NCBI GenBank assembly: GCA_023454175.1
Contig: JAEXRW010000040.1
Location: 1,925-65,924 of the forward strand
Direction: 5' to 3'
DNA length: 64,000 nt
Source of the DNA: Bacillota bacterium
GTDB taxonomy: Bacteria > Bacillota > Clostridia > Christensenellales > JAEXRW01
Translations under genes and position numbers: made by a program
Notes under the pieces: generated by a model
Database searches by the model: none
What the model was told of the DNA's origin: nothing
Seen by the model: the letters and a program-made list of their open reading frames with translations, nothing else
In this document: positions 1,730 to 51,638 of the stretch, piece by piece
How the letters are laid out: the number at the start of each line of letters is the position of its first letter
Numbering within the stretch: position 1 is the stretch's first letter

Positions 1730-1792
1730 CCCCCGCGGGCATCATGATCATGCCCGCCAGGGCATTCCGCCATTGTACATTGTACATTTCAA
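1730..1792. repeat. modular intergenic repeat, locus A (C-box + hairpin + heptamer array)
   Basis: CCCCCGCGGG at 1730-1739; hairpin ATGCCC-GCCA-GGGCAT at 1750-1765; ATTGTAC x2 plus degenerate copies at 1772-1792. It abuts the stop codon (1789-1791) of the protease gene. Confidence 0.7.
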
Positions 1793-4700
1793 ATTCGTTT
1801 TATTCGTATCGTGAATGTCCTGTACGTCTTCGCCTGGGATTTCACCTTCACGGTCACCGTAGCCGTCTGCCCGTGCCGGCTCAGGGTGATCGTCTTGCTC
1901 GTGGCCTTGCGCCCGTTGATATACACCGCGGAATACTTGTCGGATGCCTTTGCCTTGATGCTCACGCTCTTTTTGCTGTAGGGCAGCGTGATGGAGTAAG
2001 CCCCCGTCGCGTTGGAAAATCCCGGTGTCAGGTAACTGGCCGTCAGGGAGGACAGGTTCGTGTTGCTGCTCGGCGCCCGCCGTACGGTCACGCTGTAGGT
2101 GTATTTTACCTTCTTGTCCCTGTACACCACAAATTTTACGGTCTTGCTGCTTCCCGGGTTCAGTTTCACCGTCACGCTCGTGGTCTTGCTGCTCCCATTC
2201 ACGTACATCTTGTTTTCCAGGTTCACCTTGATGGGCGTGATGGTGGTGGACGCCGTGTATTCAGAAAGGTTCAGCGTATACCTGAAGGTATTGCTGTTGA
2301 ATTTGGATGAAAGCGTCCCGGCCGTGGATGCGATGTTAAAGAGCTTTCCGTTGAGTTCGGCCGGCACCACCGCGCATATTGCGGTGATGTCCTGGACGTA
2401 ATTTGTTTTATGAACGCCGTCGGTAGCTACGCTGCTGTGCGGGATATCCGCGCCCCGCGGGATATCGGGCAGCCCGTCCCTGTTGGTGTCCCATCCCAGC
2501 AGGTGGTAGCCGGGGTCGGGCCGCACGTACGGCACCGGCTCGTACTGGCCGTAGAAATAGTTGGTGGTGCTCTCGTAGTAAAGACCGTTGTACGGGTTCG
2601 CAGCGCCGATGCTGGAATGGCTGCCGGGATTGTACCGCGTGCGCAACGTCTTCTGCGCGCTGTAGGCTGTACTTCCTGTTGGCAGGTGTGTGAGGATATT
2701 TTTCACGGCCGTACTCGTTGGATTCAGCAGGTTGTAGCTCAGCTCCAGGGAGATGGACCGTCCCGTCGCCTGCCCGAAACGCTGCAGCGCGCTGATATTC
2801 GAGATGTAGTTGTTTTTCAGGTTCAGGGTATACAGCCCGCTCAGGCCCGAAAGCGTTGCGATATCGGAGATCCGGTTCCCCTGCAGGTCCAGGCTCTGCA
2901 GCCGCGTCATCCCGGAGAGACCGCTGATGCCGGTGATCCGGTTCATCCCCGCCTTCAGCGTCCGCAGCCCTCCCAGCGTCTGTACTCCCGTGAGGGCTGT
3001 CAGCTGGTTTGCGCCGAGGTCCAGCGAGTTCAGGTCTTTCAGCGGCGAAAGGTCGGGCAGCGCCGCGATGCTGTTGCCCGAAAGGTTCAGGCTCGTCAGA
3101 CCCGCACAGTACTTCAGCGCGGAGATGTCCGTGATCCCCTTGCCCGAAAGGTTCAGGCTGGGTTGATCGTAGGAAAGCTGGCGGAGTTCGTGTGCGGTGA
3201 TGTTCGTATCGTCATCCGTGTCCACCGCCAGCGGGTAGGCGGATTTCAGCGCGTCATACAGCGGGCCGTTTTCTGAGTGGCTGATGACGTCGAGGTCTTT
3301 CTTGCTCACATGCACCGTATAGGTCCGCGTCGTGGAAAGGTCTTCCGCTGTCACGGTGATGTTCACATCGGCGGTATCGCCGTAGCGCAGGTTCAGCGTG
3401 ATCTCATTGCGCTTGAGGCCGTTGATCACGGTGCTGGCGTTGGGGTCGCTTTGGGTGGCAGAGAGCGTGATGCTGTCGGTGGTCTCAGGGTAGGTCGTGC
3501 TGTATTCCGTGGTCTCGGGGTCAAATGCCAGCGTTCCGGTGGAAAGGGTGATGCCCGAGAGCGTCGCATCGTCGGACGGCTCGCCGTACGAGAGCACGAC
3601 GCGGTAGGTGCGTGTTTTCTGCCAGTCCCTGGACGTCACATCCACCCGCGCCACCCGCGCCGTATCAGGATCCAGCGTATAGTCCCTGCTGGAGGCCACC
3701 TTCCCGTCGATCATGACGAAGGCATCCGTATCCTGCGGCGTCACGTCCAATGTTGTGGTACCGCTTGTGAGCACCGCTCTGTAACGCAGCGTATCCGGGT
3801 CGAAATCCTTGTCCAGGCTCTGCCCCGAAAGCGCCAGGGCGGCAAGGCTTGCGGAGTTGTCCGATGCGGGTGCCTCCGTTTCCAGGTGGAGCCGCGCAGC
3901 GATGGTGGAGCCCCCTTCCGTTCCCGTTGGGTACGTCTGGTACACATAGGTCTTCCCGGCATAGAGGTAGGCCCGCAGGCTCGCTGCCCCGCCCGCATCG
4001 TGATCGCCCGCCCACAGCACCTTGTAGGCCTCGTTCAGGAGTTTGATCGTGCTCTCATCGTTCGTTATGCCGTTTGTGAAAGTATATACGCCCGATTTGG
4101 AGGGTATGAACTTCCATTCGCATATATCCGTGGCGCCCGTGGATTCGGCGTAAACGGTGGTCTCCGGCGGCATGTCCAGCAGGTCCGCTGCCCGGGCGGC
4201 ATACGCCGGTGGGTCCGTTTCGGTGTTTACCACGCCCTTGCCGTCAAACCACTGCACCTTGTGGTATACAGTTATTGGCAGTGAATCCACCGTGCCGAGC
4301 GTCTTCCCCCCCGCGCGGAAGGAAACGGCTGTCACCCGTTGGGACTCGCCCGTGTCGCTTTGTACGGTGTCGCCCACGCCTAGCGAGAGGGTCAGTGCGC
4401 CCCCGGCTTCTTCATAGTTTTCGCCGTAGGCCGCCTCGCTCATATCCACCACGATGGTGCCCGTGCTCGCTGTTTGCGTCCCGGCCAGGGAGTAAGGGCC
4501 TCCCCAGCCCCCGTCAAATACGAAGTCGTGTATGTAGGAGGCCGGCCCCTTGGCCTCGTTCCAGTTCATACCCGCCATCAGGGCCAGTTTGTCCCGCCGC
4601 GCTGTTGTGACGGTCACGTCCGCAGTCGCCTTGGGCTTGTATTCCGCCTGCGCCTGCAGGAAGATGGCCTGCGCGCCCGCGATCACGTTGCGGTGACCGT

Positions 4701-5856
4701 GCGCGTCCAGCAATCCGTCATAACTCAGCCAGATGTATCCGTCGTTCCAGAAGTCATCCCCCCAGGAGTTGGCGATCTTCAATGCGCCCTTCTCAAATGT
4801 ATCCACGGCGCTGTTCCCGTTGATATCCACCCAGATATTGTCGTTGTACCCCACGATGGTCATCGCGTGCCCGTCCTGAGCATATTCGCTGTCCACCACC
4901 ATCCCGTACGCGATGTACTGGTTTGCATAGCTGTCGTCTGCACTGGTGGCGGGGTCGTTGCCCACCCGTCTCTCCGTTTTCCAGTCAAAGACGTGGTCCG
5001 TGCCGAAGACCAGCACGTGCCCGTTGTTGAGCGCTCCTTTGATGTTGGTCAGCCCTTGTGCGGTATTGGTATCGTCAATGACAGTATATCCACGCAGCTT
5101 GTTCTTCAGCGCATCCCGCCAGATCTCCGCGTTCTCCGGATAGGCCAGGTACTGCAGCGGGTTTACCGTGGTGCCCGAAATGAAATCATAGCCGTTATAC
5201 TGGTATCCTGCCATGGACGCTTCGCCGGCAAAGGGCGCGCCGTGGTCCATCATCGTCAGGATGTTGTCGCTGATGGAGGAGCCCATGTCCAGCCCGTCGT
5301 TGCACAGGTTGTAGGTAAAGCGGGGTGAAAGGGTCCTGCCCGGCTCCGCCCGCAGGTCGGTTCCCCGCGCACGCGCCGTTTCGTAGGTCGCCGCATAGTA
5401 GGCGGTGGCAAAGCTCGAACACGAGCCGATGCGCCCCTGGTCGCCGATAGCTGGAAAAAAGGCGCTGTCGCTGTTGTCCACGCTTTTGGGCAGCGCGTCC
5501 AGGATCACGCCGTACAGGGACAGGGTTGCGCCGTATTTTTTATCCATGCCCCCCGCGTTTTGGGCCGTGACCACCTCGTCGCCCTCCCGGGCGGCAAAGG
5601 ATTCCGGCAGCGCATCCAGGCCCAGTTGGATCATTTCTTCGTTGATGCGCTCCAGCCCCTGCTCGTTGGGCAGGATCTTCACGGCCGTCCTGGCGCGCGC
5701 TTTGAATAGTTTGGCGGTATCCGCGCTGGGTGCGATCAGGCCCGTGCGCGGCAGGTCGCCTTCCCCTGCGGCAAACGCCGTGGCTGTCCCCAGGGACGTC
5801 AGAATGAATGCGCAGGTGATCAGGCTCACGAGGCATCTTTTCAGTATTTTTTTCAT
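1789..5856 (-). CDS. secreted multidomain C1 (papain-like) cysteine peptidase with LRR and cadherin-like beta-sandwich modules (1355 aa)
   Basis: Track ORF is 1789..6090. Start moved to ATG 5856 (signal peptide MKKILKRCLVSLITCAFILTSLGTATAFA, SD AAGGAG). Catalytic motifs: GDQGRIGSCSSFA (Cys), DGHAMTIVGYND (His), ANSWG..WNDGYIWLSY (Asn). About 8 LRRs (LTSLNLSGNSIAALPDLSPLKDLNSLDLGANQLTAL...). Repeated LSxLxxSxGxLxPxF..Y modules. Listeria-Bacteroides-type repeat (GYHLLGWDTNRDG). Confidence 0.9.
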   Translation of the reverse strand: MKKILKRCLVSLITCAFILTSLGTATAFAAGEGDLPRTGLIAPSADTAKLFKARARTAVKILPNEQGLERINEEMIQLGLDALPESFAAREGDEVVTAQNAGGMDKKYGATLSLYGVILDALPKSVDNSDSAFFPAIGDQGRIGSCSSFATAYYAATYETARARGTDLRAEPGRTLSPRFTYNLCNDGLDMGSSISDNILTMMDHGAPFAGEASMAGYQYNGYDFISGTTVNPLQYLAYPENAEIWRDALKNKLRGYTVIDDTNTAQGLTNIKGALNNGHVLVFGTDHVFDWKTERRVGNDPATSADDSYANQYIAYGMVVDSEYAQDGHAMTIVGYNDNIWVDINGNSAVDTFEKGALKIANSWGDDFWNDGYIWLSYDGLLDAHGHRNVIAGAQAIFLQAQAEYKPKATADVTVTTARRDKLALMAGMNWNEAKGPASYIHDFVFDGGWGGPYSLAGTQTASTGTIVVDMSEAAYGENYEEAGGALTLSLGVGDTVQSDTGESQRVTAVSFRAGGKTLGTVDSLPITVYHKVQWFDGKGVVNTETDPPAYAARAADLLDMPPETTVYAESTGATDICEWKFIPSKSGVYTFTNGITNDESTIKLLNEAYKVLWAGDHDAGGAASLRAYLYAGKTYVYQTYPTGTEGGSTIAARLHLETEAPASDNSASLAALALSGQSLDKDFDPDTLRYRAVLTSGTTTLDVTPQDTDAFVMIDGKVASSRDYTLDPDTARVARVDVTSRDWQKTRTYRVVLSYGEPSDDATLSGITLSTGTLAFDPETTEYSTTYPETTDSITLSATQSDPNASTVINGLKRNEITLNLRYGDTADVNITVTAEDLSTTRTYTVHVSKKDLDVISHSENGPLYDALKSAYPLAVDTDDDTNITAHELRQLSYDQPSLNLSGKGITDISALKYCAGLTSLNLSGNSIAALPDLSPLKDLNSLDLGANQLTALTGVQTLGGLRTLKAGMNRITGISGLSGMTRLQSLDLQGNRISDIATLSGLSGLYTLNLKNNYISNISALQRFGQATGRSISLELSYNLLNPTSTAVKNILTHLPTGSTAYSAQKTLRTRYNPGSHSSIGAANPYNGLYYESTTNYFYGQYEPVPYVRPDPGYHLLGWDTNRDGLPDIPRGADIPHSSVATDGVHKTNYVQDITAICAVVPAELNGKLFNIASTAGTLSSKFNSNTFRYTLNLSEYTASTTITPIKVNLENKMYVNGSSKTTSVTVKLNPGSSKTVKFVVYRDKKVKYTYSVTVRRAPSSNTNLSSLTASYLTPGFSNATGAYSITLPYSKKSVSIKAKASDKYSAVYINGRKATSKTITLSRHGQTATVTVKVKSQAKTYRTFTIRIKRI

Positions 5857-6493
5857 TTCGCTTACGCTCCTTTGACGCTGTCCAAAAGATAGCACACGTC
5901 GGCATACGGCCACTCCGCCGATGCAAAGGGTGTGGGTGTCTGGAAGATCGTCGGCTTTTGCGTTGTTTTTGCCGCGCTCTCGGAGCATTGGAAAAGACCC
6001 ATATCCCCATCGCAGTTGGAATAGGGACCGGGCTGTTTCGCCGGAAATGCAAAAAAGCCTTTCATGTTCTCCCCGCCTTTCAAAAGTCAAGGTGGGAACG
6101 TTCTGTCAGATGAACGTACCCGGAATGGGAAAGTTCCTTCAAAAAACTCTCCCATTGAACACTGCGGCTTTACTTGGAAGTGTAAAGCCCGTGTCCATTG
6201 GCAACCCGGCTGCCGTACCATTGCATGGGTTAGGCCCGTGGCTTTGCGTCGCCGCTTTTCAGTCGGCTTTGCCTTTTTCAGTTGGAGCACTGGCATATTG
6301 GGTTATAGTTGATTCCACTCTCATATATATCACACCATGAGAGTAGTTGCAACATTCCTAACCACTTATTGGTACTATTCGATAGTATATATCGTCTTTT
6401 TGACCGTGATTGTTAACAGGCATGATCAAAATGAATACTTTTTGAATTGCGCGCAGCAGCGCTGTCCGGGTTGTGGCGTAGCATATCTCCCTC

Positions 6494-7950: not shown

Positions 7951-8090
7951 TTTCTGCTCCTTGTGATGATTGATACACTTTATAGTATAATTTCATATTG
8001 CGGCTTTTAAAAGGTTTAAATCAAGGATCATAATAATAGGATGCGTTTTTCTTTCTTCTAAACTTCACCCAATTCTTTTACTCAAGCATA

Positions 8091-8250: not shown

Positions 8251-8253
8251 GAA

Positions 8254-8311
8254 CTAAAAAACCAACGCCTGCCTCCGGCGGGTGGCATGCCGTCCGCCCG
8301 CCGGAAGCAGG
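8254..8311 (-). terminator. intrinsic terminator of the glnK-orf96-amt operon
   Basis: 15-bp stem CCTGCCTCCGGCGGG (8268-8282)/CCCGCCGGAAGCAGG (8297-8311). Minus-strand T-run is the rc of CTAAAAAACC (8254-8263). Confidence 0.8.
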
Positions 8312-12051: not shown

Positions 12052-15000
12052 TCAACTGTCTGTTTCCGTTTTCCTTGTCCTGCGCATCCGGTGCAGCGTC
12101 AGTGCGATGAGCAGCCCGGCGAAGATCAGCAGGATGCTGCCGATCACGATATAGTCATACGATGGGTCCGCCGTGGCCCCGCCCGAGCCTTTGTATACGC
12201 CCGCGTCAATGGTCACGTTGTTGTCGCCCGAGACCAGGTCCACCGGCGTCGTGTCTCCGTTCACATCCGCATTGCTGTCCGTTCCGCTGGCGGGGTCCGT
12301 CCCTGTGATGGTAAATACATACCCCGGCGGCAGGATGAATTTCACGCGGTAGTCTCCCGGCATGAGGCCTGTGAACATGTAGTCGCCCTTGGCGTCCGTT
12401 ACCGTCGTCCCCACCAAGTTCCCTTCGCTGTCATAGAGCAGCACCGTCACGCCCTTCACGCCTTTTTCCTTCTTGTCCTGGATGCCGTCCTTGTCCGTGT
12501 CGATCCATATCCGGCTCCCCAGCGCAGCCAGCTTGTACAGCCCCGCGTCCCACGTCATATCGCTCTGCCCCGTTGCCAGGCTGGTGAGCACGCTCTTGCC
12601 TGTGGTGGTATCCATGTCGCTGTCCAGCGCGTCGTCGCTTCCTGCGTCTTTGGGTGTGAATCCGGCATAGGCGGCAGGTTTCGTCACCTGGACGGAGTAA
12701 TCGCCCGGGGTCAGCTGCGTGAAGCTGTAATGCCCGCCCGCGTCCGTCGTCGCCGTGCGCAGCTGTACGCCGGCGGAGCTGAGCAGTTTAACGGTGACGC
12801 CGGGGATCCCCGCCTCTCCCGCGTCCTGGATGCCGTTGATGTTGAAATCATCCCACACCGTATCCCCCAGGGATGCATAGTAGTAGATGCCCGCGTCCCG
12901 CGTCAGGTCGTTCTGCCCCGATGCCAGGGCAAACGCCGCAGTTTTCCCGGTGCTGGTGTTTGCATCGCTGTCTGTGGCGTCATTGGTGCCCGCGTCCTGC
13001 AGGGTGGTATAGGCTCCGTTTACCGGCAGCGCGAAGTGGACGGAGTAGTTGCCGGGCGCGAGGTTCGGGAAGAGGTATTTCCCGTCCGTATCCGTTGTCG
13101 TGGTTGCGAGCGGGCTGCTTGCGCCCAGCTTGTGCGCGCCGTAGGATACGGTTTCGCTGTACAGCCTTACGGTGATGTTGGGCACGCCTGCTTCATCCGC
13201 GTCCTGCAGGCCATCCAGGTTGTCATCATGCCAGACGAAATCGCCCAAGCTCGCGTAATGGTACACGCCCGCGTCCCATGTCCAGTCCCGCTGCCCAGCC
13301 GCCAGGGTGATGGTTCCCGTACGGCCCGAACTGTTCACGTCGCTGTCCTTGGCGTTGTCGCTGCCTGCGTCACGCGCGGTGAATGCGTCATAGCCCGCTG
13401 GCTTGCTGACGGATATGAAATATTGCCCCGCATCCACGTCTATGAATGCGTAGTATCCGGCCGTGCTGGACGGCCCGCCGGTGATGGTCGTAGTGGATGC
13501 CACCAGGCTGTCGTCGCCCGCCGCGCGCAGTTCCACCGTCACATCGTTGATGCCCGTTTCCCCCGCGTCCTGGATGCCGTTTCCGTTGGCGTCGTGCCAG
13601 ATATAGTCGCCCAGCGCCGCCCTGTGCATCCCCGCGTCCCACGTCAGTTCCGTTTCCTCCGGGGACAGGGTGGTGTTTGCCGTATATCCGGTCGAGGTGT
13701 TTGCATCGCTATCCCTGGCGTCATTCCCGCCCGCGTCCTGCGTGCTGAATGCGTATCCGGCGGGCAGTGTGAATTTCGCATAATAGGTACCCGCCATCAG
13801 GTGGTCAAAGGAATAATATCCGCCTGCGTCCGTCGTATCCGTCCCGGCTGTCGTATCGTCCCCCGTCAGTGCGGTCCCGTCCGGCCCCGCGCTGTAAAGC
13901 GTAACGGCCACGCCCGGGATGCCGCCTTCCCCTGTATCTTGTATGCCGTCCGCGTTGAGGTCGTTCCATACGAAGTCTCCATAGGAGGCCATCATGTATA
14001 TCCCGGCGTCATTTGTCCAGTCCCGCTGCCCCGCCGCGAGGGTAATGGTGCCCGTTACGCCGGAACTGTTCACATCGCTGTCTTTGGCGTCATCCCCTGC
14101 ATTCCGCAGCGTGAAAAGGTCGTCCCCGGATGGCTTGATGACGGTGATGGTATACTGGCCGGCCGGGAGGTCGAGGAATTCATAGTATCCGGTGGCACTG
14201 GAAGGCCCTCCCGTCGCCGTTGTGGTGCTGGCGATAAGGCCGCCGCCAGGCGCCGCGTGGAGTTCTACGGTCACGCCGTTGATGCCCGCCTCCCCCGTAT
14301 CCTGGATGCCGTTGGCATTGATGTCATACCACACGTAGTCGCCCAGCGCCGCCTTGTGGATCCCGGCGTCCCACGTGTCGTCATATTCGTCGTATGCCAG
14401 GCTGGTGGCGGCCGTGTAACCGGTCGAGGTGTCCGCGTCGCTGTCCGTTGTATCCGCCGTTGCGTTCGCCGGGGAGAAAGCATAGCCTGTCGGCAGGGTA
14501 AATCCGATATAATAGGAGCCCGGCGTCAGGTGGTCGAAAAGGTACGCTCCGCTGGCGTTCGTCGTCGCGGTCCCCGCCGTTGTATCGTCGCCGGTGTGCG
14601 GCGTCCCGTCCTCTCCTACGTTATAGAGTGTGACGGTCACGCCCGAAACGCCTGTCTCGCCTGTATCCTGCACGCCGTCGGCGTCCATGTCGTTCCATAC
14701 GAAATTCCCGATGCTGGGCTGCTTGTACATCCCCGCGTCCCGCGTCAGGTCGATCTCACCCGCATCCTGGGTGAATGTGGCCGATGCGCCCGTTGCGTCC
14801 ACGTCGCTGTCCTTCGCGTCATCGCCGCCCGCATCTGCTGAGGTGAATGTGTCATAACCTGCGCCCAGCGTCATCTTGACGGAGTAGTTCCCCGCGTCCA
14901 AATCGGTGAACTGATAGGATCCCGAAGCATTTGTATTTGTCGTTCTGAGGGGCGTCGGGTTGCCGTTCAGGTACAGGGCTACGGGGATGTTGTTGACGCC

Positions 15001-18000
15001 CGTTTCCCCGGTATCCTGTATGCCGTTCCCGTTTCCGTCATGCCATACGAAATCCCCGATGATCCCCTTGTGGATGCCGGCGTCCCAGGAGGTATCGTTG
15101 GCATTCGGCCCCAGGTAGGATGTGACCGCCGTATAGCCCGTGCTGGTGTCCGCGTCGCTGTCCGTCGTATCCGCCGTCGCGTCCGCCGGGGAGAATACAT
15201 AGTTGGCGGGCAGCGTGAAGAGCAGGTAGTACCGGCCCAGTTCCAGGCTTGTGAAGGTGTAGATCCCGCTCGCGTTCGTCTGCTTTGTCCCCACCAGCGT
15301 ATCGTCGCCGGTCAGGGCGGTATTGTCCGCGCCCGCGTTGTAGCAGGTCACGGTTACGTTGGCCACGCCCGTCTCCCCGCCATCCTGTATGCCGTTGGCG
15401 TTGATGTCCTTCCATACCCGGTCGCCGAGCCTGGGCAGACGGTACATCCCCGCGTCCCGCGTCATGTCCCATTCCCCCGCGTCCTGCGTGAAAACGGCTG
15501 AAACGCCTGTGGCGTCCGTGTCGCTGTCCTTGGTGTCATCCGCTCCCTGGTCCTGCAGGGCAAACCTGTATTCCAATGGCAGTGTTGCGGTGACGGTTAT
15601 GTAATAATCTCCCGCATCCAGCTCGGTGAAAAGGTAGTTTCCCGAGCTGTTCGTCGTGGTCGTGCCCACCGTCGTGTCGTCCCCGGTATATGGCGTTGTG
15701 TCCGGCCCTACGCCATGCAGGACCACGGTGGCGCCCGGGATATTGGCCTCCCCGTTGTCCTGGATGCCGTTGTTGCTGTTGTCGTTCCATACGCGGTCCC
15801 CCACCCGGCCCTTGTGCATGCCGCAGTCCCAGCTTATATCGTCCTCGCCCGACTGCAGGGTGGTCGTGATGGTCCAGCCCGTGGCATCCGCATCGCTGTC
15901 CGTCCCGTCGTTTCCGCCTGCGTCCTGTGGAGACATTGCATAGTTTGCCGGGAGCGTAAAGTGTACCTTGTAGTCGCCCGGTGCCAGGTTGTCAAAGGTA
16001 TAGATTCCGGAGCTGTTCGTCGTCTTATCCGTTACCGGATTCCCGTCCGCGTCGGTCACAGGGTCGCCCGAGGCGTCCGCCAGGGAGACCGTTACACCCT
16101 GGATGTTGGGTTCACCGCCGTCCTGTATTCCGTCCGCATCCTGGTCGTTCCATACCCGGTCGCCGATGCTGGCGGGTATGTAAAGGCCCGCGTCCATGTC
16201 CATGTTATCGCTGGACAGCGTGATGGTCCTTGTTTCTCCCGTATAGAAGCTCCCTGCATGCGAAGCACCGGTGTCCAGGTCCGAATCTGCAGCGTCGTTG
16301 GAGCCGCCCCCCGTCCGGTAGACCGTTGCGCGGTAGCTGTCGGGGTATGTAAATGTCATGAAATAGTTCCCGCTCGGCAGGTCGGGGAAAAGGTACCATC
16401 CGGCTCCCTGTCCCGCCTCGTCGAAATGGTCGCCTGTCCGTGTATAGGCGAGGGGTTCGTCCGTATCCGGGTCGGCCCCGCCGTTGAATAGCTTGATGAG
16501 CACGCCATTGATGCCCGGCTCCCCCGTATCCTGGATGCCGTTGCGGTTTTTGTCCTCCCATACACGGTTGCCCAGGTTCAGCGGCTCCTCGTTGTGGATC
16601 TCGAATCCCACCTTCTGCGGTTCGGAGGGCAGGAATGGCTGGTCGATCTCCGCTTCGTCGGCATAGTCTTCGTATGTGGCACCGTAGCCAAAGCTGTTCC
16701 AGGCCACCAGCCCCGGCGTCGTGCCGTAGGGCGCGCGCATGGGCCATTCAAAGGTGACCGAGTCGTTGGGCTGCAGTACCGTATCCCCCAGGTCTATTTT
16801 GATGGACCGCACCGTGGTGATGTCCGCCGGTGGTGTCTCCGTCCACCCGTCCCCGCCCGAGCCGTTGTTGTTGGCCGGGTCCGCCAGCTCCGTGCACGAG
16901 GGGTTCGCGTTGGTACTGTAATAGATTTTATAATCGTCCAGCAGTCCCGCGCCGGCCACGCACGTGATCTCGTTCACCAGGTAGGGCCGCCACTGCGACT
17001 CCCTCGCGGTGGGATCCACCACGCCTGTGTCCCCGATGCGCGGTAGTTTGTCGATCAGCACGATGTTGGAGATGGGTCCGTTCGAGCCGCTGTTTCTCAC
17101 CGTCAGCCGGTAGTCCGCCTTGCCGCCCGCCACGGTCTCCCCCAGGCCGGGGCTGGCGAGCGTATAATGGTGCCACGCGCTGTCCAGTTCGCCCTTCACC
17201 CATTTCTGCGACTCCAGGCTCCCCTGGAATTTTACGAAGATGTCCCGGGTCGCCGGCACCATGATGTCGTCGGTGTGTCCGTCCCCGTCCAGGTCTTCTG
17301 TATCGGTGGTGCGCCCCGTATAGGGTTTGATGTTGTTGGTGATATCCGTTGTCAGGTAATAGGTGTTGCGCACGCTGCCCACCAGGGTCTGGTCCTTGAT
17401 GCGTGCCGAGAATTTGATATCGTAATACTGCCCCGGTTCCAGTGTCACGGGGTCCATCGTGCTCCCGATACGCCATACGTAGACCGGCCTCCCCGCGCTG
17501 TCCGTTTTGGTGGAGGTCATCGCGCCCGGGGTGAAATTCGTCCCCGTCGGCGCGGGCAGTCCGCTGCTCCCCGTCACGCTGATGAACTGCGGGTCTTCCA
17601 GCTGCACCGGCAGCGCCTCGATGGCGATGGGGTTCGTCAGGTTCCCTGTGGCGTAGTCGTGGTTCTTCACGCGCAGCGTGTAGGTCACGCGCGTCCCGTA
17701 GTAATACGTGGCTGCGTCCGCGCTCTTGGAGGGGTTCAGCCAGGGGATGGCGTTGATGATATCAAAATGCGCGCTGGCGTTGATCACATGCTCCGATCCG
17801 CCGTAGCTCCAGTGCAGGTACGCGTAGTTCGTTACCGTATGGGGCAGCGGGTCGGGGCTGGGGTCCAGCACCGTTCCCCGTATCTCCATGGACTGGTAGG
17901 GTGCGAAGCCCACCGGCACGTGCGTCGTCCCGTCCCCGAAGTCCCATTTCAGGTTTGTGATGGTGTCGCCGGGGGTGAGCCCCAGGTCCGCCACATACAG

Positions 18001-19367: not shown

Positions 19368-19383
19368 TAAGCTGTATAGGACC

Positions 19384-19448
19384 CAGCAGGTCTATATATT
19401 CCCCCCCGCAGGGTTAATTGTCAATTGTTAATTGTCAATTTTCAATTG
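19384..19448. repeat. modular intergenic repeat, locus B
   Basis: CAGCAGGTCTATATATT, then C-box CCCCCCCGCAGGG (19401-19413), then five heptamers TYAATTG (19414-19448). The last two heptamers encode the C-terminus and stop of the ABC ATPase. Confidence 0.75.
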
Positions 19449-32674: not shown

Positions 32675-32897
32675 CGCCCCGCAGAGTTTCCAAAGAGGTT
32701 CCCACGTATCACTTTGACAAAGGGTTATCCCTGCGGTTTCACATGATCATGCCCGCAAGGCATACCATAATTATACATTTCCCCCGCAGGCCCTATCGCA
32801 TGGCGCCCTGGAACGGGTGTAATGCACCTGTTTATAGGGTGATCTGGCGCCTAAGCAACCCGTAGGGTTGCATGTGCCTTGAGGGTTGTCCCCGAGA
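32675..32897. repeat. modular intergenic repeat, locus C
   Basis: GCCCCGCAGAG (32677-32687); inverted CCCTGCGG (32729-32736); hairpin ATGCCC-GCAA-GGCAT (32749-32763); degenerate heptamers; C-box CCCCCGCAGG (32781-32790); hairpin GCAACC-CGTA-GGTTGC (32865-32880) homologous to locus D. It directly follows the HK stop codon. Confidence 0.65.
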
Positions 32898-34439
32898 TTA
32901 ACTCTCCATTGCCAGTTCCATCGTGAACCAGAACTCGACCCCCCCCGCCACGTTCCGCGCCCCGCATGATTCTCCGTGGGCGTCGATCACGGCTTTCACG
33001 ATGGAAAGTCCCAACCCCGTGCCTCCCAGTTCCCGTGTGCGCGCCTTGTCCGCCTTGTAAAAACTCGTCCAGATCTTTTCCATCTCCTCCTCGGGGATCC
33101 CTTTCCCCGAGTTGAATACCGACAGGATCGCTTTCCCGTCCTCGCGTTTCGCGGATATCCGGATGGTCTTTTGGGCGTTCGCGTGGCGTATGGCGTTGCT
33201 CAGGTAGTTGTCCAGCGCCCGCTCCATCATCTCGAAGTCGGCGTGCACCATGATATCTGCTTCTATATTTTTAACGAGTTGGATCCCGGCTTTTTCAAAT
33301 TCGATCCGGTGCTTTTTCGTAGCCCGTTCGACCAGTTCCAGCAGGTTGAAATCCTCCCACGAAAGCTTCATCTGCCCGGACTCCATCTTGGAGAGGTCCA
33401 GCAGCTGCTTCACCAGCTTGTCCATCTTCTTTGTCTCGTCCATGATGACGTCGCAGTATTCCTTCCTGCTCGCTTCATCCACATGGATGTTCAGCGCCAG
33501 CCCTTCCGCGTAGCCCTGGATGAGCGCCAGCGGCGTCTTCAGTTCGTGGGAGGCGCTGGAGAGGAATTCCCTGCGCATTTTGTCCGTCTCCTCCTTGCGC
33601 AGCACATCCTCCTTCAAAGCTTCGTTCGCCTGCTCCAGTTCCGTGATATGCTTGTGCAGCTGGTCCGAGAGTGCATTGATGGAGTCCCCCAGCACCGTGA
33701 TCTCGTCTTTCGGCCTGCGCGTGAATTTTGCGTTGAAGTCCAGCTTCTCCATCCGCTTGGCGATGGCGGAAAGCTCCGTGATGGGCCGCGCAAATCCCCG
33801 CGATACAAAAAGGACGATCACCACGCCCAGTATCAGCGTCAATATGCCCGTATACAGGTAAAAGGTGTTGGCCACGCCCACGCTCTCCTGGATGGCCGCC
33901 ACCGCCGTTCGCAGGTAGACCATGGTATCGACGTTCAGCTTCGCGCCCAGTTGGAGCAGGCCCATGTTCTGCCCCCGGTTCTGTCCGCGGTCCTGCCCGA
34001 TGCGTTCGATCACCACGCCCTGCGTATTTATTCTTTCCGCTATCCGCTTGAGCTGGTTTGCTTCGAAGTTAAAAGGCCCCCCGCGCGGTTCCTCCGGTTC
34101 GCTTTCCTCTCCCTGCCTGGGTGAAAGCGAGGGTGCCGGGTTTTGTTCATTCTGCCCCCGGATGGGCCGTGAAGTATACTGGATATCCAGGTTCTTGTTA
34201 AAGATGGTGATATGGATGCTGCTTTCCGATTCGATGGCGTCGAGTTGCTCCGCCAGGTCCGCCGGGTTCGCGGCATACAGCCGGGAAACGGTATTGAATG
34301 TATCCTTGAGCTGCCCTTCCTTGCGGTAGATGTAGTAGTCGTTCAGGAAAAGGCTGCTCAACAGGATGGATACCGCCACAAACAGGATGATGACCGCGCC
34401 CAGGATGGCCGCCATTTTCAGCCGTATGGATATTCTCAT
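32898..34439 (-). CDS. sensor histidine kinase (2 TM, HAMP, HisKA, HATPase)
   Basis: H-box SASHELKTPLALIQGY, N-box LSNAIRHA, G-boxes GKGIP / GGTGLGLSIVK. Confidence 0.9.
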   Translation of the reverse strand: MRISIRLKMAAILGAVIILFVAVSILLSSLFLNDYYIYRKEGQLKDTFNTVSRLYAANPADLAEQLDAIESESSIHITIFNKNLDIQYTSRPIRGQNEQNPAPSLSPRQGEESEPEEPRGGPFNFEANQLKRIAERINTQGVVIERIGQDRGQNRGQNMGLLQLGAKLNVDTMVYLRTAVAAIQESVGVANTFYLYTGILTLILGVVIVLFVSRGFARPITELSAIAKRMEKLDFNAKFTRRPKDEITVLGDSINALSDQLHKHITELEQANEALKEDVLRKEETDKMRREFLSSASHELKTPLALIQGYAEGLALNIHVDEASRKEYCDVIMDETKKMDKLVKQLLDLSKMESGQMKLSWEDFNLLELVERATKKHRIEFEKAGIQLVKNIEADIMVHADFEMMERALDNYLSNAIRHANAQKTIRISAKREDGKAILSVFNSGKGIPEEEMEKIWTSFYKADKARTRELGGTGLGLSIVKAVIDAHGESCGARNVAGGVEFWFTMELAMES

Positions 34440-34500
34440 TTCCCCGCCATCCTTTCTTCAGCAATGGTTTCTGTCTTTGTTCTCCCACGTGGGTCCATAT

Positions 34501-34810
34501 GATTATGCCGAAGGCATTCCGAAACTATCAACTATCAACTTGAGGGTTTCCCTCGCAGGGTTAACCTGGTTCCCTCAGACGCGCGTTACGCGCGTTTGTG
34601 AGTGGAGCTGTCACCCAAGCAGCCCGTTGGCTGCATGTGGCTTGAAGGAGGGATCACATATATCAATTGTTGCTTGCCTGTGTTGGCGTCCTGATGATGC
34701 CGCTGTTATGCGTATCTTCCCCTCACAGGATAATTGTCAATTGTCCATTGTCAATTAGAAATATGCCCCCGCAGGATAACTTTCCACTCTCAACTCTCAA
34801 TTTTCAACTT
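34501..34810. repeat. modular intergenic repeat, locus D (three concatenated modules)
   Basis: Hairpin ATGCC-GAA-GGCAT (34505-34517); ACTATCA x2-3 (34524-34544); CCCTCGCAGGG (34550-34560); hairpins ACGCGCG-TTA-CGCGCGT and GCAGCC-CGT-TGGCTGC; CCCCTCACAGG (34719-34729); ATTGTCA x3-4 (34733-34760); CCCCCGCAGG (34766-34775); TCAACTC-like x4 (34783-34810). Confidence 0.75.
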
Positions 34811-36266: not shown

Positions 36267-36420
36267 ACGAGCGGTATCAACAGTCTCCGTTCTTTATATG
36301 GCCTTGAATATTTAACCTCAAATGATATAATTTTGTTGGTATTCTTCTCTGCCTGCCGTTGCTTTTCATCTTTGCAGTACATCCGGCATTTTTTCCTATA
36401 TATATTGGAGTGTGGACTAC

Positions 36421-39400
36421 ATGGTTATTAAGCGTATTGCCCTGGCATGTCTCTCGGTATTGTTGATTCTCAGTCTCCTGCCTACAGCCTCTGCTGCAGG
36501 AATTAGTCTACACGGAAGCAAAATTGCCGGTTTGAAAGCCAGGTATGCATCTGCATCTTCGAGTCCATTCGCTAGTGATGCTTTGCCTGAAGCCGTGGAT
36601 AACAGTACATCAAATTACTTTCCATCGATAGGTCAAGCATATGGATATGATGATATGGAATTTGCAACTACATACTATCTGATGACTTATGAGACTGCTA
36701 AAGCAAGAGATTGGGATGTAAAGGCAGGGGGACATAGTAGAATTTTTTCACCCACATGGACGAAGAACTTATCACATAATGGTAATGCTAGTATAGGAAA
36801 TGCCATTGACATATTATCCAATTACGGAGCTTTGTTTTGGGATGATCTTCCATATTACTCGAGCAGTCAGGCATGGCCAACTACAGCAGAGCAATGGCGG
36901 GAAGCTCTTAGGTACCGAATTAAAAGTGATTACGTTCATGATATTGATTCTCAGTCGTTAAAAGAGTCTTTGAGTGCCGGTAAGATATGCGTGATTGAAA
37001 CTGATATAAATAGTTGGCACTGGGAATCAATTAAAGATAATACAGATTCAACTTCTGACGATAATGAAATTAATAAATTTGCTGCCAGTTACATGGACAA
37101 CACAGACTTTATTTTCGGTGCACTAGTCATCGTAGGTTACAACGATTCAATTTGGATTGACAGGAATGATGATAATACCATTCAACTAGATGAATTAGGG
37201 GCATTTAAGGTAGCAAATTCAGCAGGGACAAGCTGGAAGAATGATGGTTTTGCGTGGTTTGCATATTCAGCTATAAATGATAATGATAATGGACATAAAG
37301 GAATTATTGCTAATAATGGAGCTTTGTTTTTTGAAGCTGATTCAAAAGATTATACCCCCCTTGTTACAGCGGAAATCAATATAACAACAAGTAATAGACA
37401 ATCTCTTCTGGTTTTCAAAGGAATAAATTGGTCTGAAGCTGCTACACCCAACACGCTTGAAGTCGGGGAGCAGTATGGTGCTGGTGGCTTTTTGAAAGTA
37501 TGTAATTATGATAAGGTTTTTTATTATAATGGCGGTTCTTATTCATTACAAGGTAATACAACTTTAGAAACCGGAACGATTGTAGTAGATTTAACAGATT
37601 TAATAAAGGGAGGCGGGGATATTTTCCCGAACAACTGGCAGTCTTACGGAGGACCCTTGAGCTACTGTATTGGAATATACAATCCATATGATGTTTCTTA
37701 TAAAATAAACAGTGTAATATTCCAGATAGAATCAACGGGTGCACGTATCGATGCACAAATACCGGATGATACATTAAGTTATCATGAAATGCAATGGTAT
37801 AATGGTGTTGGAGTCTTAAATCCAGATAAAGCTGCCCCTTATTCCGATCCAAGTATTAATGCTCTTCCATCAATAACTGAAAATGTCCCTGCGCATGCTA
37901 GTTTAAGTCAAGCCTCCCCGGTCGTTGAATGGAAATTTGTCCCGTCAAAAACAGGTTCGTATATTTTCTCCAATGATGGGGGAGAGAATGTAGAATACTC
38001 TATCTTGAACGATGCAAGAAATATCCTTTATACCGGAAATAAATCCCGTGAAGGATGGAGCTTTGCTACTGCTGAATTCATCAGGGCTTCTTTGATCGCA
38101 GGTAAAACATATGTTATTAATATCTCCTTAGGAGGGCCCGTTGCTCCAAGAATAGTTAACGCACTTATAAGGAAAGTTGACTTGCAAAGTGATGCGGATT
38201 TGTTCGGCTATGGATGGGATGGATATAATACATATTTAACGCAACAGTGTCTTTATAATTACGATATCAATCTTTCGCCAGAGGGTGATGGCAGTTTTTC
38301 CATAAGGCCGATTCGGGAATCTGATAACACTTCATTCCTGATTGACGGTGAACAAGTAGGATATAAACTCCTGCTCATGAAATGGCAGGAAACCAAGCAT
38401 ATTCAGATAACTACCACTTCAGGTGATGGGAGCGCCACCAGACAATATAATCTTACTATTAAGAGACCATATTCTACAAATGCAGGGCTTGATTGGGTGA
38501 CTAGTAGTGATGAAAGAGGCTTTCATTGGGAAGATGACTCAAGCTTTAAAACAGATTTGCCAGAAAATGTGGGAAGCGTAACGTTTACACCGCATCCCAG
38601 CAGTAAACATGCATCCTACACCATTGATGGTGTTAAACAAACCAGCAAGACTGTCAATGTAAAAAGAGGCGAGACGGTTACTTCCATCGTTGAGGTGACA
38701 GCGGTAGATGGCATAACGAAAAAGACCTACAGGGTTACGGTCAGCAGGGCGGTCAGACAGCCGCGCCTGATATCATTTGGGCAATCCGTGGGCCAGTTTG
38801 TTGACGGTTCCAAATCGGATCCGCAAGTTTTGGGTGGTAATTTATTGGTGCTTCCAAAAAACTGCTATACCGTGACGCTCACCCCAAAATGTTCTTTTGA
38901 CGGTGTGACAGTTTATTTCGATGGGGTTCCTGCCAAAAGCCGGACGTATACGATAAAACCGAACGTTTTAACGAGTGTGAAAATAAAACTGGCTGCTGAC
39001 GAGGGGAAATCCGTACAGGAATATTCACTGACTATAAAAAATACTGAAACCGTGTATGGTTTGCTTGCTGGCCTGAAAGCTTCATTTGGTAAACTCAGTC
39101 CATCCTTTGATCCTCTGAAGCATGACTATACTTTGACGCTCGACGAAAACATTTCAGCTACCAGGATCACGCCTATCATGGACTATCTTACGACGAAGAT
39201 TACCATCGATGGAAGCCGGGCTACGAGCAAGGCGTATTCATTGTCGCCCGGAACGCATCGGCATGTAACGATCTGTGTATACTACACATCCAGGAAATAT
39301 GGAACATATCACTTAACGATCGTCCGTTCACCCAAAACAAATTCCAGCTTGTCATCGCTCAGCGTCCGATATGGGGTCTTAACCCCCAAATTCGGGCAGA

Positions 39401-39930
39401 ATACCCCAGCATATTCTGTGTTAGTCCCTGCCAACAGGAGTTACGTCACAGTACAGGCAACGAAGGCCGACAAATATGCGACCACTATCATAGACGGATC
39501 AAAAACCTCCCGTAAAAACATCAAGGTTGCATACGGGCAAAAAAAGGTGATTACCGTCACCTGCAGGGCGCAAGCCGGGGGCAGTTACAGTAAAAACTGG
39601 ACCCTCACATTGATCAGGCCGCCAAAAATCAATACATTCGAGGTGAGTCCCAAGATTTTAGGTAAACCGACTGTCCAGACAGGCGTTAAGCCGGTTACGT
39701 TCCTCTATTCTCTTTATGGGGCAGGAGGCAATACAAAGCTGGAGATCCTGACTTCTTCCGGCTGGGTTACTTTGAAGGAAGAATACGTTTCAACGCATAC
39801 CAGGAAGTTTGTTTGGGATGGTACTGTGGGTGGCAGTCCTTTGCCAGCCGGTATCTATACGGTGAGATTAAGCGCATCAAGCAACGGCTATGATTCAGCA
39901 GTTAAAACGATTGCAGTAAGAATCAAATGA
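36421..39930 (+). CDS. secreted, catalytically inactive paralogue of the C1 peptidase/cadherin-like protein (1169 aa) with FlgD-Ig-like C-terminus
   Basis: Track start is GTG 36412; ATG 36421 has better SD spacing (GGAG + 10 nt). Signal peptide MVIKRIALACLSVLLILSLLPTASA. Colinear with 1789..5856, but the Cys motif reads IGQAYGYDDMEFATTYY and the His motif reads FIFGALVIVGYND. Shares VEWKFVPSKTGSY and several LSxL..G.L.P.F modules. AT-rich codon usage. Confidence 0.85.
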   Translation: MVIKRIALACLSVLLILSLLPTASAAGISLHGSKIAGLKARYASASSSPFASDALPEAVDNSTSNYFPSIGQAYGYDDMEFATTYYLMTYETAKARDWDVKAGGHSRIFSPTWTKNLSHNGNASIGNAIDILSNYGALFWDDLPYYSSSQAWPTTAEQWREALRYRIKSDYVHDIDSQSLKESLSAGKICVIETDINSWHWESIKDNTDSTSDDNEINKFAASYMDNTDFIFGALVIVGYNDSIWIDRNDDNTIQLDELGAFKVANSAGTSWKNDGFAWFAYSAINDNDNGHKGIIANNGALFFEADSKDYTPLVTAEINITTSNRQSLLVFKGINWSEAATPNTLEVGEQYGAGGFLKVCNYDKVFYYNGGSYSLQGNTTLETGTIVVDLTDLIKGGGDIFPNNWQSYGGPLSYCIGIYNPYDVSYKINSVIFQIESTGARIDAQIPDDTLSYHEMQWYNGVGVLNPDKAAPYSDPSINALPSITENVPAHASLSQASPVVEWKFVPSKTGSYIFSNDGGENVEYSILNDARNILYTGNKSREGWSFATAEFIRASLIAGKTYVINISLGGPVAPRIVNALIRKVDLQSDADLFGYGWDGYNTYLTQQCLYNYDINLSPEGDGSFSIRPIRESDNTSFLIDGEQVGYKLLLMKWQETKHIQITTTSGDGSATRQYNLTIKRPYSTNAGLDWVTSSDERGFHWEDDSSFKTDLPENVGSVTFTPHPSSKHASYTIDGVKQTSKTVNVKRGETVTSIVEVTAVDGITKKTYRVTVSRAVRQPRLISFGQSVGQFVDGSKSDPQVLGGNLLVLPKNCYTVTLTPKCSFDGVTVYFDGVPAKSRTYTIKPNVLTSVKIKLAADEGKSVQEYSLTIKNTETVYGLLAGLKASFGKLSPSFDPLKHDYTLTLDENISATRITPIMDYLTTKITIDGSRATSKAYSLSPGTHRHVTICVYYTSRKYGTYHLTIVRSPKTNSSLSSLSVRYGVLTPKFGQNTPAYSVLVPANRSYVTVQATKADKYATTIIDGSKTSRKNIKVAYGQKKVITVTCRAQAGGSYSKNWTLTLIRPPKINTFEVSPKILGKPTVQTGVKPVTFLYSLYGAGGNTKLEILTSSGWVTLKEEYVSTHTRKFVWDGTVGGSPLPAGIYTVRLSASSNGYDSAVKTIAVRIK

Positions 39931-47300: not shown

Positions 47301-48112
47301 TGTGCCCTCTTTTCTGTTCGCCTATGCCGCGCGGTGGTCTCCTTGCTTTCGTTTATACAGGTTCGTTTGCATCGCTTTTCCCTTGAAATGGATGCGCAAA
47401 TATACAGGTGTGGCATCCACAGGGCGCTCGCTGATTGTATCGTTGCGACGGCACATACGGTCAGGTCCGCGTTTTATTACCACCTTTCTACATGTATATG
47501 CAATTTATTGCTGTATGTGACATTATACAAACGGGTATATAGATAGAACTCTTTGTAATATCTAATAGGGATCGACCCTCGGTTCTTTCCTTTTGGCGCG
47601 GAAAGGGTGTGGGCTGATTCAGGCAATGTAGCCCGTTTGCCCCGCATTTGCTCTGAGTAATGCGGTCATTGGGAAGCAGTCGCAAGCCGGTGGTTGCGTT
47701 TGTAGCCCGTAAACTGCTTCATCTAAATATAGATCCATGCCGAGCAGCGGTTTGTGTAGTGATATGTGTTTGATAATGCACCAGTGATGCATTCTTTCTG
47801 AGTGCAATATATCTTTAGGCGGTCCAGAATGGCCAGCGCGCGAGCTGCGCGTATGCAAGGCATAGTGAGTATTGGGAAGGAAATTGACAACACTCGAATG
47901 TTATCAAATTCAATCATGCCGAGAAGCGACATGTGCGGTGCGAGGCATACCTTAAGGGAAAGGGGGTATCCGGGCGGCCGCGCGCGCAGCCCGGTATCTA
48001 GGGGGCAGCCAAGGCTCCCCGGAAAACAAGAAAAAGCGGCATCAGCCGCCTTTCCTGCAATAATATGCGTATCAAGCCGTTGCGCTATGACTGCAACGTA
48101 TGTAAGTAGTGC
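47301..48112. other. ~0.8-kb hairpin-dense non-coding region (possible leader/ncRNA)
   Basis: No credible ORF. Hairpins at 47611-47634, 47642-47665 and 47673-47720. GTAGCCCGT twice. 14-nt direct repeat CATGCCGAG[C/A]AGCG at 47736-47749 and 47915-47928. Confidence 0.35.
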
Positions 48113-48148
48113 AATCGTAAAAGCGGGATGGTTTCCGATCCTCCCGCT
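48113..48148 (-). terminator. intrinsic terminator of the RsfA-like gene
   Basis: Stem AGCGGGA (48122-48128)/TCCCGCT (48142-48148) with inner pairing. Minus strand then reads TTTTACGATT. Confidence 0.65.
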
Positions 48149-48169
48149 TTTATCCTTTTGTACGGCGTC

Positions 48170-49580: not shown

Positions 49581-49610
49581 TATAGCAAAAGGCGGCTTAT
49601 TACAGCCGCC
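49581..49610 (-). terminator. intrinsic terminator of asnS
   Basis: Stem GGCGGCT (49591-49597)/AGCCGCC (49604-49610). Minus strand then reads TTTTGCTATA. It sits ~145 nt after the stop, beyond repeat locus E. Confidence 0.7.
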
Positions 49611-49635
49611 CATGAATCTATCTCTTTATGTGTCA

Positions 49636-49750
49636 GCAGGCTCCCCAAAACGAATCTGTGAGTCGCTTTGGGCTGGGGGTAACCCCCGCAGGTCTATAGC
49701 CCAAAGGGCATACCATGATTCTTAATTATTAATTATTAATTCTTAATTTT
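49636..49750. repeat. modular intergenic repeat, locus E
   Basis: Hairpin CCAAAACGA..TCGCTTTGG; C-box CCCCCGCAGG (49683-49692); TCTATAGCCCAAAGGGCATACC; heptamers TTAATTM x4-5 (49715-49749) ending 4 nt before the asnS stop codon. Confidence 0.75.
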
Positions 49751-49753
49751 TTA

Positions 49754-51148: not shown

Positions 51149-51230
51149 TCCTTACACCTCGTCTATCGATTATGTTTATTTTTGCGTAGTCAAAGGTTAT
51201 TATCCCGGGTAAGAGCAGCAAACCTCATTA

Positions 51231-51275
51231 ATCTCCGCAGGGCATTCCAAAACAGCCAACTGTCAACTCTACTTG
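51231..51275. repeat. modular intergenic repeat, locus F1 (short)
   Basis: CTCCGCAGGGCATTCC, then CCAACTG/TCAACTC heptamers. Enclosed by the ATTCCAAA/TTTGGAAT stem. Confidence 0.5.
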
Positions 51276-51357
51276 AAATACTTTGGAATTATCCGATTAT
51301 CCTTATATAACATGATACAGGATATTGGTATTTGCCCTGTTCCGACGCTTCTCATCC

Positions 51358-51530
51358 TAAAGCCTCCCTTAAACGGATGTATAGCATCCGTATGTAATGG
51401 GAGGTGGCAGCCTCAAAGCGACCCAAAATGATCCGCAAATGGGCCGTGTTCCTATGGCGTCGCATACTGCCGGAGGGATTCCAAGCATAAGTGTAGATGA
51501 GTCCAACAATATTAACAGTCTTCTGCTGGT
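51358..51530. repeat. copy 2 of the ~180-nt hairpin-rich element (copy 1 at 180-360)
   Basis: Same block order as copy 1. The CGGATG/CATCCG stem is kept while its loop differs (CAGCG vs TATAG). The GGCAG/CTGCC and GCGAC/GTCGC stems are kept around a different-length insert. Confidence 0.5.
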
Positions 51531-51560
51531 GCCGTGTCAGGCATGCATGTATCAACTGCT

Positions 51561-51638
51561 ACCCCCGCAGGCCATTAAACCATGCCCGCAAGGGCATTCC
51601 GCAATTATACATTGTACATTATACATTATACATTTTTA
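51561..51638. repeat. modular intergenic repeat, locus F2
   Basis: C-box ACCCCCGCAGG (51561-51571); hairpin ATGCCC-GCAA-GGGCAT (51582-51597); heptamers ATTRTAC x4-5 (51604-51638). Confidence 0.75.

Follow-up and report, generated by a model that had tools for sequence, protein, structure and literature searches.

Background

The BIME/REP sequences of enterobacteria (bacterial interspersed mosaic elements and repetitive extragenic palindromes) are extragenic and transcribed, typically lie between a stop codon and a terminator or between cistrons, and are mosaics of short motifs in variable order with small G/C-rich palindromes. The BOX elements of pneumococci are modular (A-Bn-C) with a variable number of internal repeats; they are intergenic, co-transcribed and predicted to form stable RNA folds, and we know of no transposase for them. 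Correia elements of Neisseria are short non-coding repeats with terminal inverted repeats of 26 bp and a duplicated TA; where they settle beside genes they supply RNA hairpins and promoter hexamers that point outward. Promoters that spread between unrelated genes have been reported as 'mobile promoters' (Matus-Garcia et al. 2012, PMC3488235). Intergenic tandem repeats of heptamers have been described in Xanthomonas (GGGAATC) and Nostoc/Anabaena (GGGGAYT) (Rehm et al. 2015, PMC4692102), where the STRR heptanucleotides of Calothrix are also cited. The Xanthomonas and Nostoc heptamers are 89-93% intergenic and lie on average 28 nt from the upstream open reading frame (ORF), mostly 0-50 bp from its stop on the coding strand and much farther from the downstream ORF; they comprise several related words, vary in length and sequence between close relatives and are mostly transcribed, their function is unknown, and polymerase slippage has been suggested for their excess (PMC4692102). 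Here we describe a family of AT-rich heptamer tracts, each tied to a short G/C-rich box, in a 64,000-nt stretch of contig JAEXRW010000040.1 from a Bacillota bacterium of the Christensenellales (hereafter the window), a gut-type member of the Clostridia that is seldom sampled.

Read in the sense of the neighbouring genes, a unit of this family consists of a heptamer tract, a linker and a G/C-rich palindromic box, CCTGCGGGGG. We consider it probable, at roughly 0.55, that these units form a lineage-specific family of short, non-coding, non-autonomous mosaic repeats built around slippage-prone heptamer microsatellites and behaving like BIME, BOX or Correia elements. It is a new family of a known general kind, and not a new class of system.

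Similarity to the Xanthomonas and Nostoc heptamers is seen in the head-to-tail period of 7 with at least 3 copies, over-represented here (6 arrays versus 0 for other periods), in the intergenic position 0-8 nt after a stop codon or including it in six cases (for the kinase of the window, a degenerate unit), and in a copy number that varies between relatives (4-5 versus 1-2 and 1 versus 4). A first-pass annotation of the window had regarded the architecture as unusual, whereas stop-proximal heptameric repeats that vary between close relatives had already been described in those two groups (PMC4692102). Unlike the present tracts, which are AT-rich (66-92% A+T) and lie on one strand, the earlier heptamers are G-rich and quadruplex-forming, occur on both strands, have no reported fixed box, hairpin or structured module, and belong to different phyla. 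The window supplies an AT-rich case, from a Firmicute, of the heptameric intergenic repeats whose excess next to stop codons is poorly understood, and, unlike in the earlier cases, the tracts are tied to fixed flanking motifs and accompanied by a documented insertion that split an overlapping operon junction and destroyed neither gene.

As in BIME/REP, the units form extragenic mosaics with small G/C-rich palindromes; they differ in having no 35-40-nt REP palindrome, no GTAG head and no alternating orientation, no RAYT-type gene was seen among the window proteins scanned, and BIMEs for their part contain no microsatellite. With pneumococcal BOX they share a modular intergenic unit with a variable internal repeat, a likeness of architecture with no relationship of sequence expected, the variable part being a 45-nt unit in BOX and 7 nt here. 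Short non-coding repeats beside genes, with promoter-like sequence and putative RNA hairpins, also recall the Correia elements and the 'mobile promoters', although neither 26-bp terminal inverted repeats nor a TA duplication was seen.

Structure and orientation of the units

About 73 kb of the source genome and 6 kb of one relative were examined. The first-pass annotation had listed seven intergenic loci sharing a C-rich box, a small hairpin and tandem heptamers, and these blocks were found in all seven (7/7). Two of the seven fall short of the 3-5 tandem heptamers that it gave: locus C (32675-32897) has one full heptamer, TGTATAAT on the minus strand, and no array, and locus F (51231-51275) has about two imperfect units. 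A common orientation had been proposed, and 7/7 intergenic box matches were indeed on the plus strand. The flanking genes are all on the minus strand, as called by third-position GC (0.7-0.86 in true genes) and supported by Pfam, and there the order is gene stop, heptamer tract, linker and G-rich box. The plus-strand description given earlier has to be turned around accordingly, because it is only on the minus strand that tract and box take regular positions that make sense, the former at the stop codon and the latter downstream. The hairpin had been termed GNRA-type, which is true of two GCAA loops on the plus strand only, the others there being GCCA, GAA and AAA; the gene-sense loops are UUGC, UGGC, UUC and UUU. 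An ORF at 1412-1729 that seemed to start at box A was rejected as a gene, being non-coding by third-position GC.

The box, CCCYSRCAGG on the plus strand, occurred 8 times in the window against 2.1 expected, and none of 100 shuffles reached 8. Seven of the 8 matches were on the plus strand, all of them within the listed intergenic loci, and the lone minus-strand match was intragenic. When tandem arrays were called at no fewer than 3 copies with at least 12/14 lag matches, six arrays of period 7 were found in the window and none of periods 5, 6 or 8-12; all six were intergenic, AT-rich and adjoined the C-rich box. As a comparison set, 80 asnS loci of other Clostridia were used (1.25 Mb for the box and array scan, 1.27 Mb for the module search described below). 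Period-7 arrays were found there at 0.92 per 64 kb, and no box-linked array was present in the 1.25 Mb. The repeat observation is real, specific and far from chance. Intergenic DNA of this GC-rich genome is far more AT-rich than its genes (third-codon-position GC 0.7-0.86), and such DNA might yield heptamer tracts as a chance by-product, but the counts already refute this explanation, which is hardly tenable: only period 7 shows an excess (6 arrays, with 0 at the periods on either side), the box count of 8 exceeds the 2.1 expected with all 7 intergenic matches on one strand, the units share extended sequence identity, and a second genome also carries the family.

Three types of unit were distinguished, all ending in the G/C-rich, partly palindromic box (CCTGCGGGGG and variants). 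Type S consists of a heptamer tract, TTAWC and the box; B, D1 and D2 are of this type, as is a degenerate copy next to the stop of the kinase gene. Type P consists of a heptamer tract, NNNGGWATG, a box-like hairpin and CAT, with a second box about 10 nt further on (A, C, D3, E and G); unit F is a fused, degenerate form of it. Type M is a two-hairpin module of ~95 nt followed by a box. Units A and G share the near-identical CATGCCCGCMAGGGCATTCC, and near-identity among units extends over ~20 nt beyond any promoter motif. The hairpin and box of unit A can also pair with each other through 16-nt arms that are 81% complementary. The features are as follows.

187..286, minus: two-hairpin module in the leader of the gene running off the window start (model R1, 70 bits; folding z-score -5.5)
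1730..1765, minus: unit A, hairpin ATGCCC-UGGC-GGGCAT (1750-1765) and box CCCGCGGGGG (1730-1739)
1772..1786, minus: unit A, heptamer tract TGTACAA x2 +T, directly after the TGA stop (1791-1789) of the 1433-aa surface-protein gene
19379..19413, minus: unit B, box CCCTGCGGGGGGG and second box-like hairpin GACCTGCTGGGTCC, both upstream of the intrinsic terminator at 19368-19346
19413..19445, minus: unit B, tract TTGAAAA TTGACAA TTAACAA TTGACAA TTAAC, including the TGA stop of the ABC ATPase gene (19437-19435)
32677..32906, minus: composite C, between the histidine-kinase stop and a hydrolase gene; from the stop side, degenerate unit (32890-32906), two-hairpin module (32802-32885), box (32781-32790), single TGTATAAT (32770-32777), hairpin ATGCC-UUGCG-GGCAT (32749-32763), inverted box (32729-32736) and box-like CTCTGCGGGG (32677-32686)
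34459..34807, minus: composite D, 349 nt inserted where the response-regulator gene has its last codons, with AAG on both flanks; tract and box (34766-34807), tract and box (34719-34754), two-hairpin module (34568-34652), box (34550-34560), tract (34522-34538), hairpin (34505-34517) and palindromic box CCCACGTGGG (34484-34493)
49639..49746, minus: composite E, in the 3' untranslated region (UTR) of asnS, upstream of the terminator at 49611-49590; tract TTAAGAA/TTAATAA x4 (49718-49746), hairpin (49696-49711), box (49683-49692) within a long stem-loop (49666-49706) and truncated remnant of the two-hairpin module (49639-49666)
51233..51266, minus: unit F, degenerate, ~2 heptamers and then GGAATG fused to box CCCTGCGGAG, 85-120 nt upstream of the asnS start
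51363..51477, minus: two-hairpin module, asnS leader copy (model R1, 84 bits)
51562..51632, minus: unit G, tract TGTATAA x3 + TGTACAA, hairpin ATGCCC-UUGC-GGGCAT (51582-51597) and box (51562-51571)

Insertion and loss of units between relatives

The source lineage is poorly sampled: among ~15 billion proteins the next asparaginyl-tRNA synthetase was 72% identical, so that the asnS locus has no near relative, and that of the best GTDB representative was 69% identical. Look-ups of 23 window proteins led to one useful relative, represented by Logan contigs L092 and L093 (runs SRR29758288/9). The kinase encoded on L093 is 69% identical in protein sequence to that of the window, and a neighbouring gene on L092 is 87% identical in DNA.

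Regulator and kinase genes of L093 share an ATGA overlap, and the regulator has the C-terminus …GVGYRMEVEGK*. The regulator of the window ends in …GVGYKLKIES*, with its stop inside tract D1, and 349 nt of units follow; directly before the kinase start a decayed form of the old regulator tail, ATGGCGGGGAAATGA, persists. Two outgroups have a 12-nt gap (L095/L096) and a 4-nt overlap (L097) at this junction. Since L093 and the two outgroups have either an overlap or a 12-nt gap, the 349-nt insertion represents the derived state in the window. Comparison of these junctions shows that a 349-nt composite was inserted into an overlapping two-component junction, the tract supplying a new in-frame stop (…GVGY-KLKIES*). 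This polymorphism, the most informative property of the family, had been overlooked in the first-pass annotation.

Differences were also seen at two further sites. At the 3' end of the kinase gene the window has one heptamer (TGTATAAT) versus four in L093, where a P-like unit stands right after the kinase stop (TGTATAA TTTATAA TGAATAA TGTATAA, CGCGG, hairpin UGUCC/GGACG), and the ~95-nt module is found in the window only, accompanied there by a box. Upstream of the shared terminator, which in the window follows asnS, the window has 4-5 heptamers with a module remnant and an added hairpin; L092 has 1-2 heptamers there, then a box, the full module and another box. Because of these differences at shared sites, tract length and module content are seen to change much faster than the flanking genes. 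The comparison shows gain and loss of entire units and composites from one close relative to another. It was also noticed that gene order differs around L092 1863-4054 and window 41.4-48.2 kb: L092 carries a 325-aa gene, two other genes and the DUF1905 neighbourhood, and the window has four different genes between.

The heptamer word and its position at stop codons

When 33 heptamers from the window and the two related contigs were placed in register on the minus strand, all fitted one degenerate word, T-K-D-A-N-A-R. Position 1 was T (33/33), position 2 G or T (33/33), position 4 A (31/33), position 6 A (31/33) and position 7 A or G (33/33); C was absent from position 3, and any base occurred at position 5. 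The tracts contain 66-92% A+T, in words such as TTGACAA, TGTATAA and TTAATAA. The earlier statement that the architecture is conserved while the repeat word varies was therefore too strong, as every word is a variant of TKDANAR and the words are not free. The heptamers are variants of one degenerate word that has been homogenised within each tract.

Five window genes and the kinase gene of the relative have a tract that starts 0-8 nt past their stop or includes it. Those of the window encode the 1433-aa surface protein, the ABC ATPase, the response regulator, AsnRS (asnS) and the histidine kinase, the last with a degenerate unit only; for asnS the tract begins 3-8 nt after the stop, depending on how the A-rich lead-in is counted. 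If units A, B and E were placed at random in their gaps, the joint probability of an edge within 5 nt of the stop would be roughly 5e-6, by our own estimate from the gap lengths. As a rule the word includes TGA or TAA, and since 7 and 3 have no common factor the tracts close reading frames, 26/36 in the sense direction versus 10/36 in the antisense direction. Units B and E lie between a stop and an intrinsic terminator, inside the predicted 3' UTR. No terminator was found within any unit, including composites C and D, and the unit of L092 likewise lies between stop codon and intrinsic terminator; owing to this placement, the B, E and L092 units should be co-transcribed with the upstream gene.

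The constant 7-nt period with locus-specific words, the presence of the gene's own stop inside the tract in B and D1, and the box always standing on one side of the tract could all be accommodated if the tracts were footprints of a cut-and-paste element with 7-bp target duplications, whose repeated insertion and excision would stack the local 7-mer beside a fixed end, the box. This is very improbable, given that the words share five constrained positions and so are not arbitrary local sequence, that neither a transposase nor an element with 7-bp duplications was seen, and that tracts also lie inside composites, off gene ends (D2, D3 and G).

The two-hairpin module

A compensatory change between hairpins of loci C and D had been pointed out in the first-pass annotation. 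It was confirmed, and the hairpin proved to belong to the ~95-nt module, of which five copies were found (window 187-286, 51363-51477, 32802-32885 and 34568-34652; L092 80-177). The family thus reaches beyond the range first described, the module at 187-286 being the fourth in the window and that of the related genome the fifth. The covariance model built from the five copies scores those same copies at 70-87 bits and gave nothing credible in the 1.27 Mb of other Clostridia. The copies were aligned with MAFFT, the tip of the first hairpin being trimmed by us in two rows to permit aligning. Of 20 pairs, 7 were changed on both sides among the five copies, versus 2.9 in shuffles (3/500 shuffles reached 7), and sliding the partners by 1-3 columns gave 0-3 double-sided changes. 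By direct reading of the sequence, the small hairpin also shows a compensatory change, from ATGCC(C)/(G)GGCAT to UGUCC/GGACG in L093. The module is a candidate new structured RNA or DNA motif.

It is possible that the elements act mainly as RNA, that is, as structured 3'-UTR or 5'-leader elements (processing or stability sites, or small RNA from E and B), with the module as an undescribed cis-regulatory RNA that would mask a Shine-Dalgarno-like GGGAGG. Consistent with such a role, three helices carry compensatory changes, three copies have folding z-scores of -5.5, -3.7 and -2.8, CCUCCC pairs in the two best copies with a GGGAGG that stands 7 nt ahead of a start codon, and the units lie within predicted transcripts. 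Unlike a riboswitch, however, the module accompanies unrelated genes, be it in their leaders, in their 3' UTRs or between cistrons; direct reading of the sequence shows no conservation of the putative downstream peptides, copy C folds no better than shuffles (z -0.7), single-stranded DNA of a mobile element would keep hairpins equally well, and the heptamer tracts are left unexplained. We regard a mainly RNA-based role as unlikely.

In the two best copies (51363-51400 and 187-215, minus strand) GGGAGG is followed 7 nt on by AUG or UUG, opening non-conserved frames of 28 and 9 codons, and in the predicted fold CCUCCC pairs with GGGAGG in what would resemble a masked ribosome-binding site. A weak match to the module (E 0.12) was found at 47697-47808, within an 869-nt gene-free stretch (47301-48169) that has its own local repeat, ATCATGCCGAG…, at about 47737 and 47913; at 47913-47952 a variant family hairpin has its loop expanded to 23 nt (GATCATGCC…GGCATACC). 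The elements of this stretch may be decayed family members or other small RNAs.

Promoter-like sequences and possible mode of spread

A consensus scan of the sense strand found sigma-A matches, which are matches and not evidence of activity, in B, D1, D2 and D3. Each heptamer of unit G can be read as an extended -10, TGnTATAAT, a form that strong candidate promoters of the genome itself also use, and TGTATAAT is present in G, C and L093.

Such sequences could also belong to cis-regulatory DNA kept at each locus and not copied, with sigma-A promoters, arrays of sites for one regulator of TTGACAA-like heptamers and a palindromic box, or both. The sense matches to TTGACA-16/18-TATCCT/CATAAT and to TGTATAAT, the position of A, C, D3, F and G upstream of co-directional genes, and the partly palindromic boxes, like dimer-binding sites, fit this idea. 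The units, however, share near-identity over ~20 nt beyond any promoter motif, as in the CATGCCCGCMAGGGCATTCC of A and G; the B, E and L092 units precede a terminator and not a gene, a composite stands within a formerly overlapping operon junction, and the 7-bp period mismatches helical phasing, B-DNA having ~10.5 bp per turn. We find this explanation rather unlikely.

Under the preferred reading, a family of non-autonomous mosaic repeats, units would colonise gene ends and leaders along the direction of transcription. Replication slippage in place may expand, contract and homogenise the tracts, which would explain the locus-specific words. The stop-rich tract would close all frames, and this would make insertion into the 3' ends of genes tolerable. 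In addition, the tracts can be read as putative sigma-A -35 (TTGACA) or extended -10 (TGTATAAT) signals, and a transcript predicted from a P unit would start ~1 nt ahead of a hairpin at its 5' end. Units may therefore carry outward promoter activity with them and stabilise the transcript, and such a role would explain why only the gene-sense orientation survives. Copying could be due to a trans-acting enzyme encoded elsewhere or to recombination between dispersed boxes. If the promoter and three-frame-stop readings are true, the units would form a compact natural 'insulator plus promoter' cassette and a useful marker of genome dynamics in an uncultured lineage.

Several observations weigh against this reading. 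An inverted-repeat scan of six loci found no terminal inverted repeats, only internal hairpins. As for target duplication, AAG on both sides of D is the only instance, from one filled/empty pair, and 3 nt may be chance; no clear duplication was seen. No transposase or recombinase gene, RAYT-type (REP-associated tyrosine transposase) or other, was found by Pfam among the 37 window proteins. Since a terminator, not a gene, comes after units B and E, the promoter role does not fit every unit; part of the promoter-like and stop-rich content would be expected of any AT-rich word, and several TGTATAAT units may be related by descent and would then not be independent evidence. An improbable alternative is an undescribed mobile element aimed at stop codons, bringing its own three-frame stop tract and outward promoter, with the module or box as a handle or even a guide RNA for the insertion enzyme.

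Searches outside the window and excluded identities

The first-pass annotation had not recognised the family as REP/BIME, a CRISPR array, a MITE or a known RNA class, and the results agree with it. No unit matched an Rfam 15 family at gathering thresholds or at permissive E (up to 10 for the asnS leader, up to 0.5 window-wide). The heptamers are contiguous and without spacers, unlike a CRISPR array. Stems of 4-6 bp (ATGCCC/GGGCAT), a single orientation and the lack of a 35-40-nt palindrome speak against REP/BIME. The absence of terminal inverted repeats speaks against a classic miniature inverted-repeat transposable element (MITE); a MITE-like presence/absence polymorphism is present, with the 349-nt insert of the window versus an overlap or 12-nt gap in relatives. 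The only Rfam match in the window was a c-di-GMP-I riboswitch (6197-6283, minus strand, 81.6 bits) in the leader of the 1433-aa cadherin-like/leucine-rich-repeat gene (1789-6090) whose stop precedes unit A.

Other candidates were rejected on specific grounds. For integron attC sites, no paired RYYYAAC/GTTRRRY cores were seen on reading the loci, and the flanking genes are housekeeping (asnS, two-component pair). A T-box leader of asnS and group II intron domains gave no Rfam match. Guide pairing between linker and heptamer of the IS200/IS605 type was set aside, the same heptamer having different linkers across units. HutP/TRAP-like RNA repeats would share a common triplet, and none was found; the spacing is wrong for Spo0A or OmpR-type binding arrays; and for DNA uptake sequences the copies are too few and intergenic only.

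Family members were absent from L094, a relative of 45% identity, and from an 8.9-kb extension of the contig. Two viral-contig scans, a plasmid BLAST and a phage BLAST gave nothing relevant to the family. The exact CATGCCCGCMAGGGCATTCC pattern had 7 matches in JGI metagenomes, about the estimated chance number; none had a box or tract, and they were judged to be unrelated small hairpins. No tRNA or tmRNA genes were found.

Other features of the window

A low-GC island at 36412-39930 (plus strand; GC 0.37-0.47 in a genome of 55-60% GC) was probably acquired recently; the gene that it carries, for a 1172-aa cadherin-like/FlgD-Ig protein, has a third-position GC of only 0.38. Two small paralogous genes lie in tandem (452-841 and 1021-1434, minus strand) and encode 129 and 137 aa; they are 81% identical in DNA, have no Pfam match and each has its own terminator. 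The gene at 12052-19194 (minus strand) encodes a 2380-aa surface protein with SdrD_B/SpaA repeats, and its about a dozen internal DNA repeats of 348-375 nt dominate the list of direct repeats in the window.

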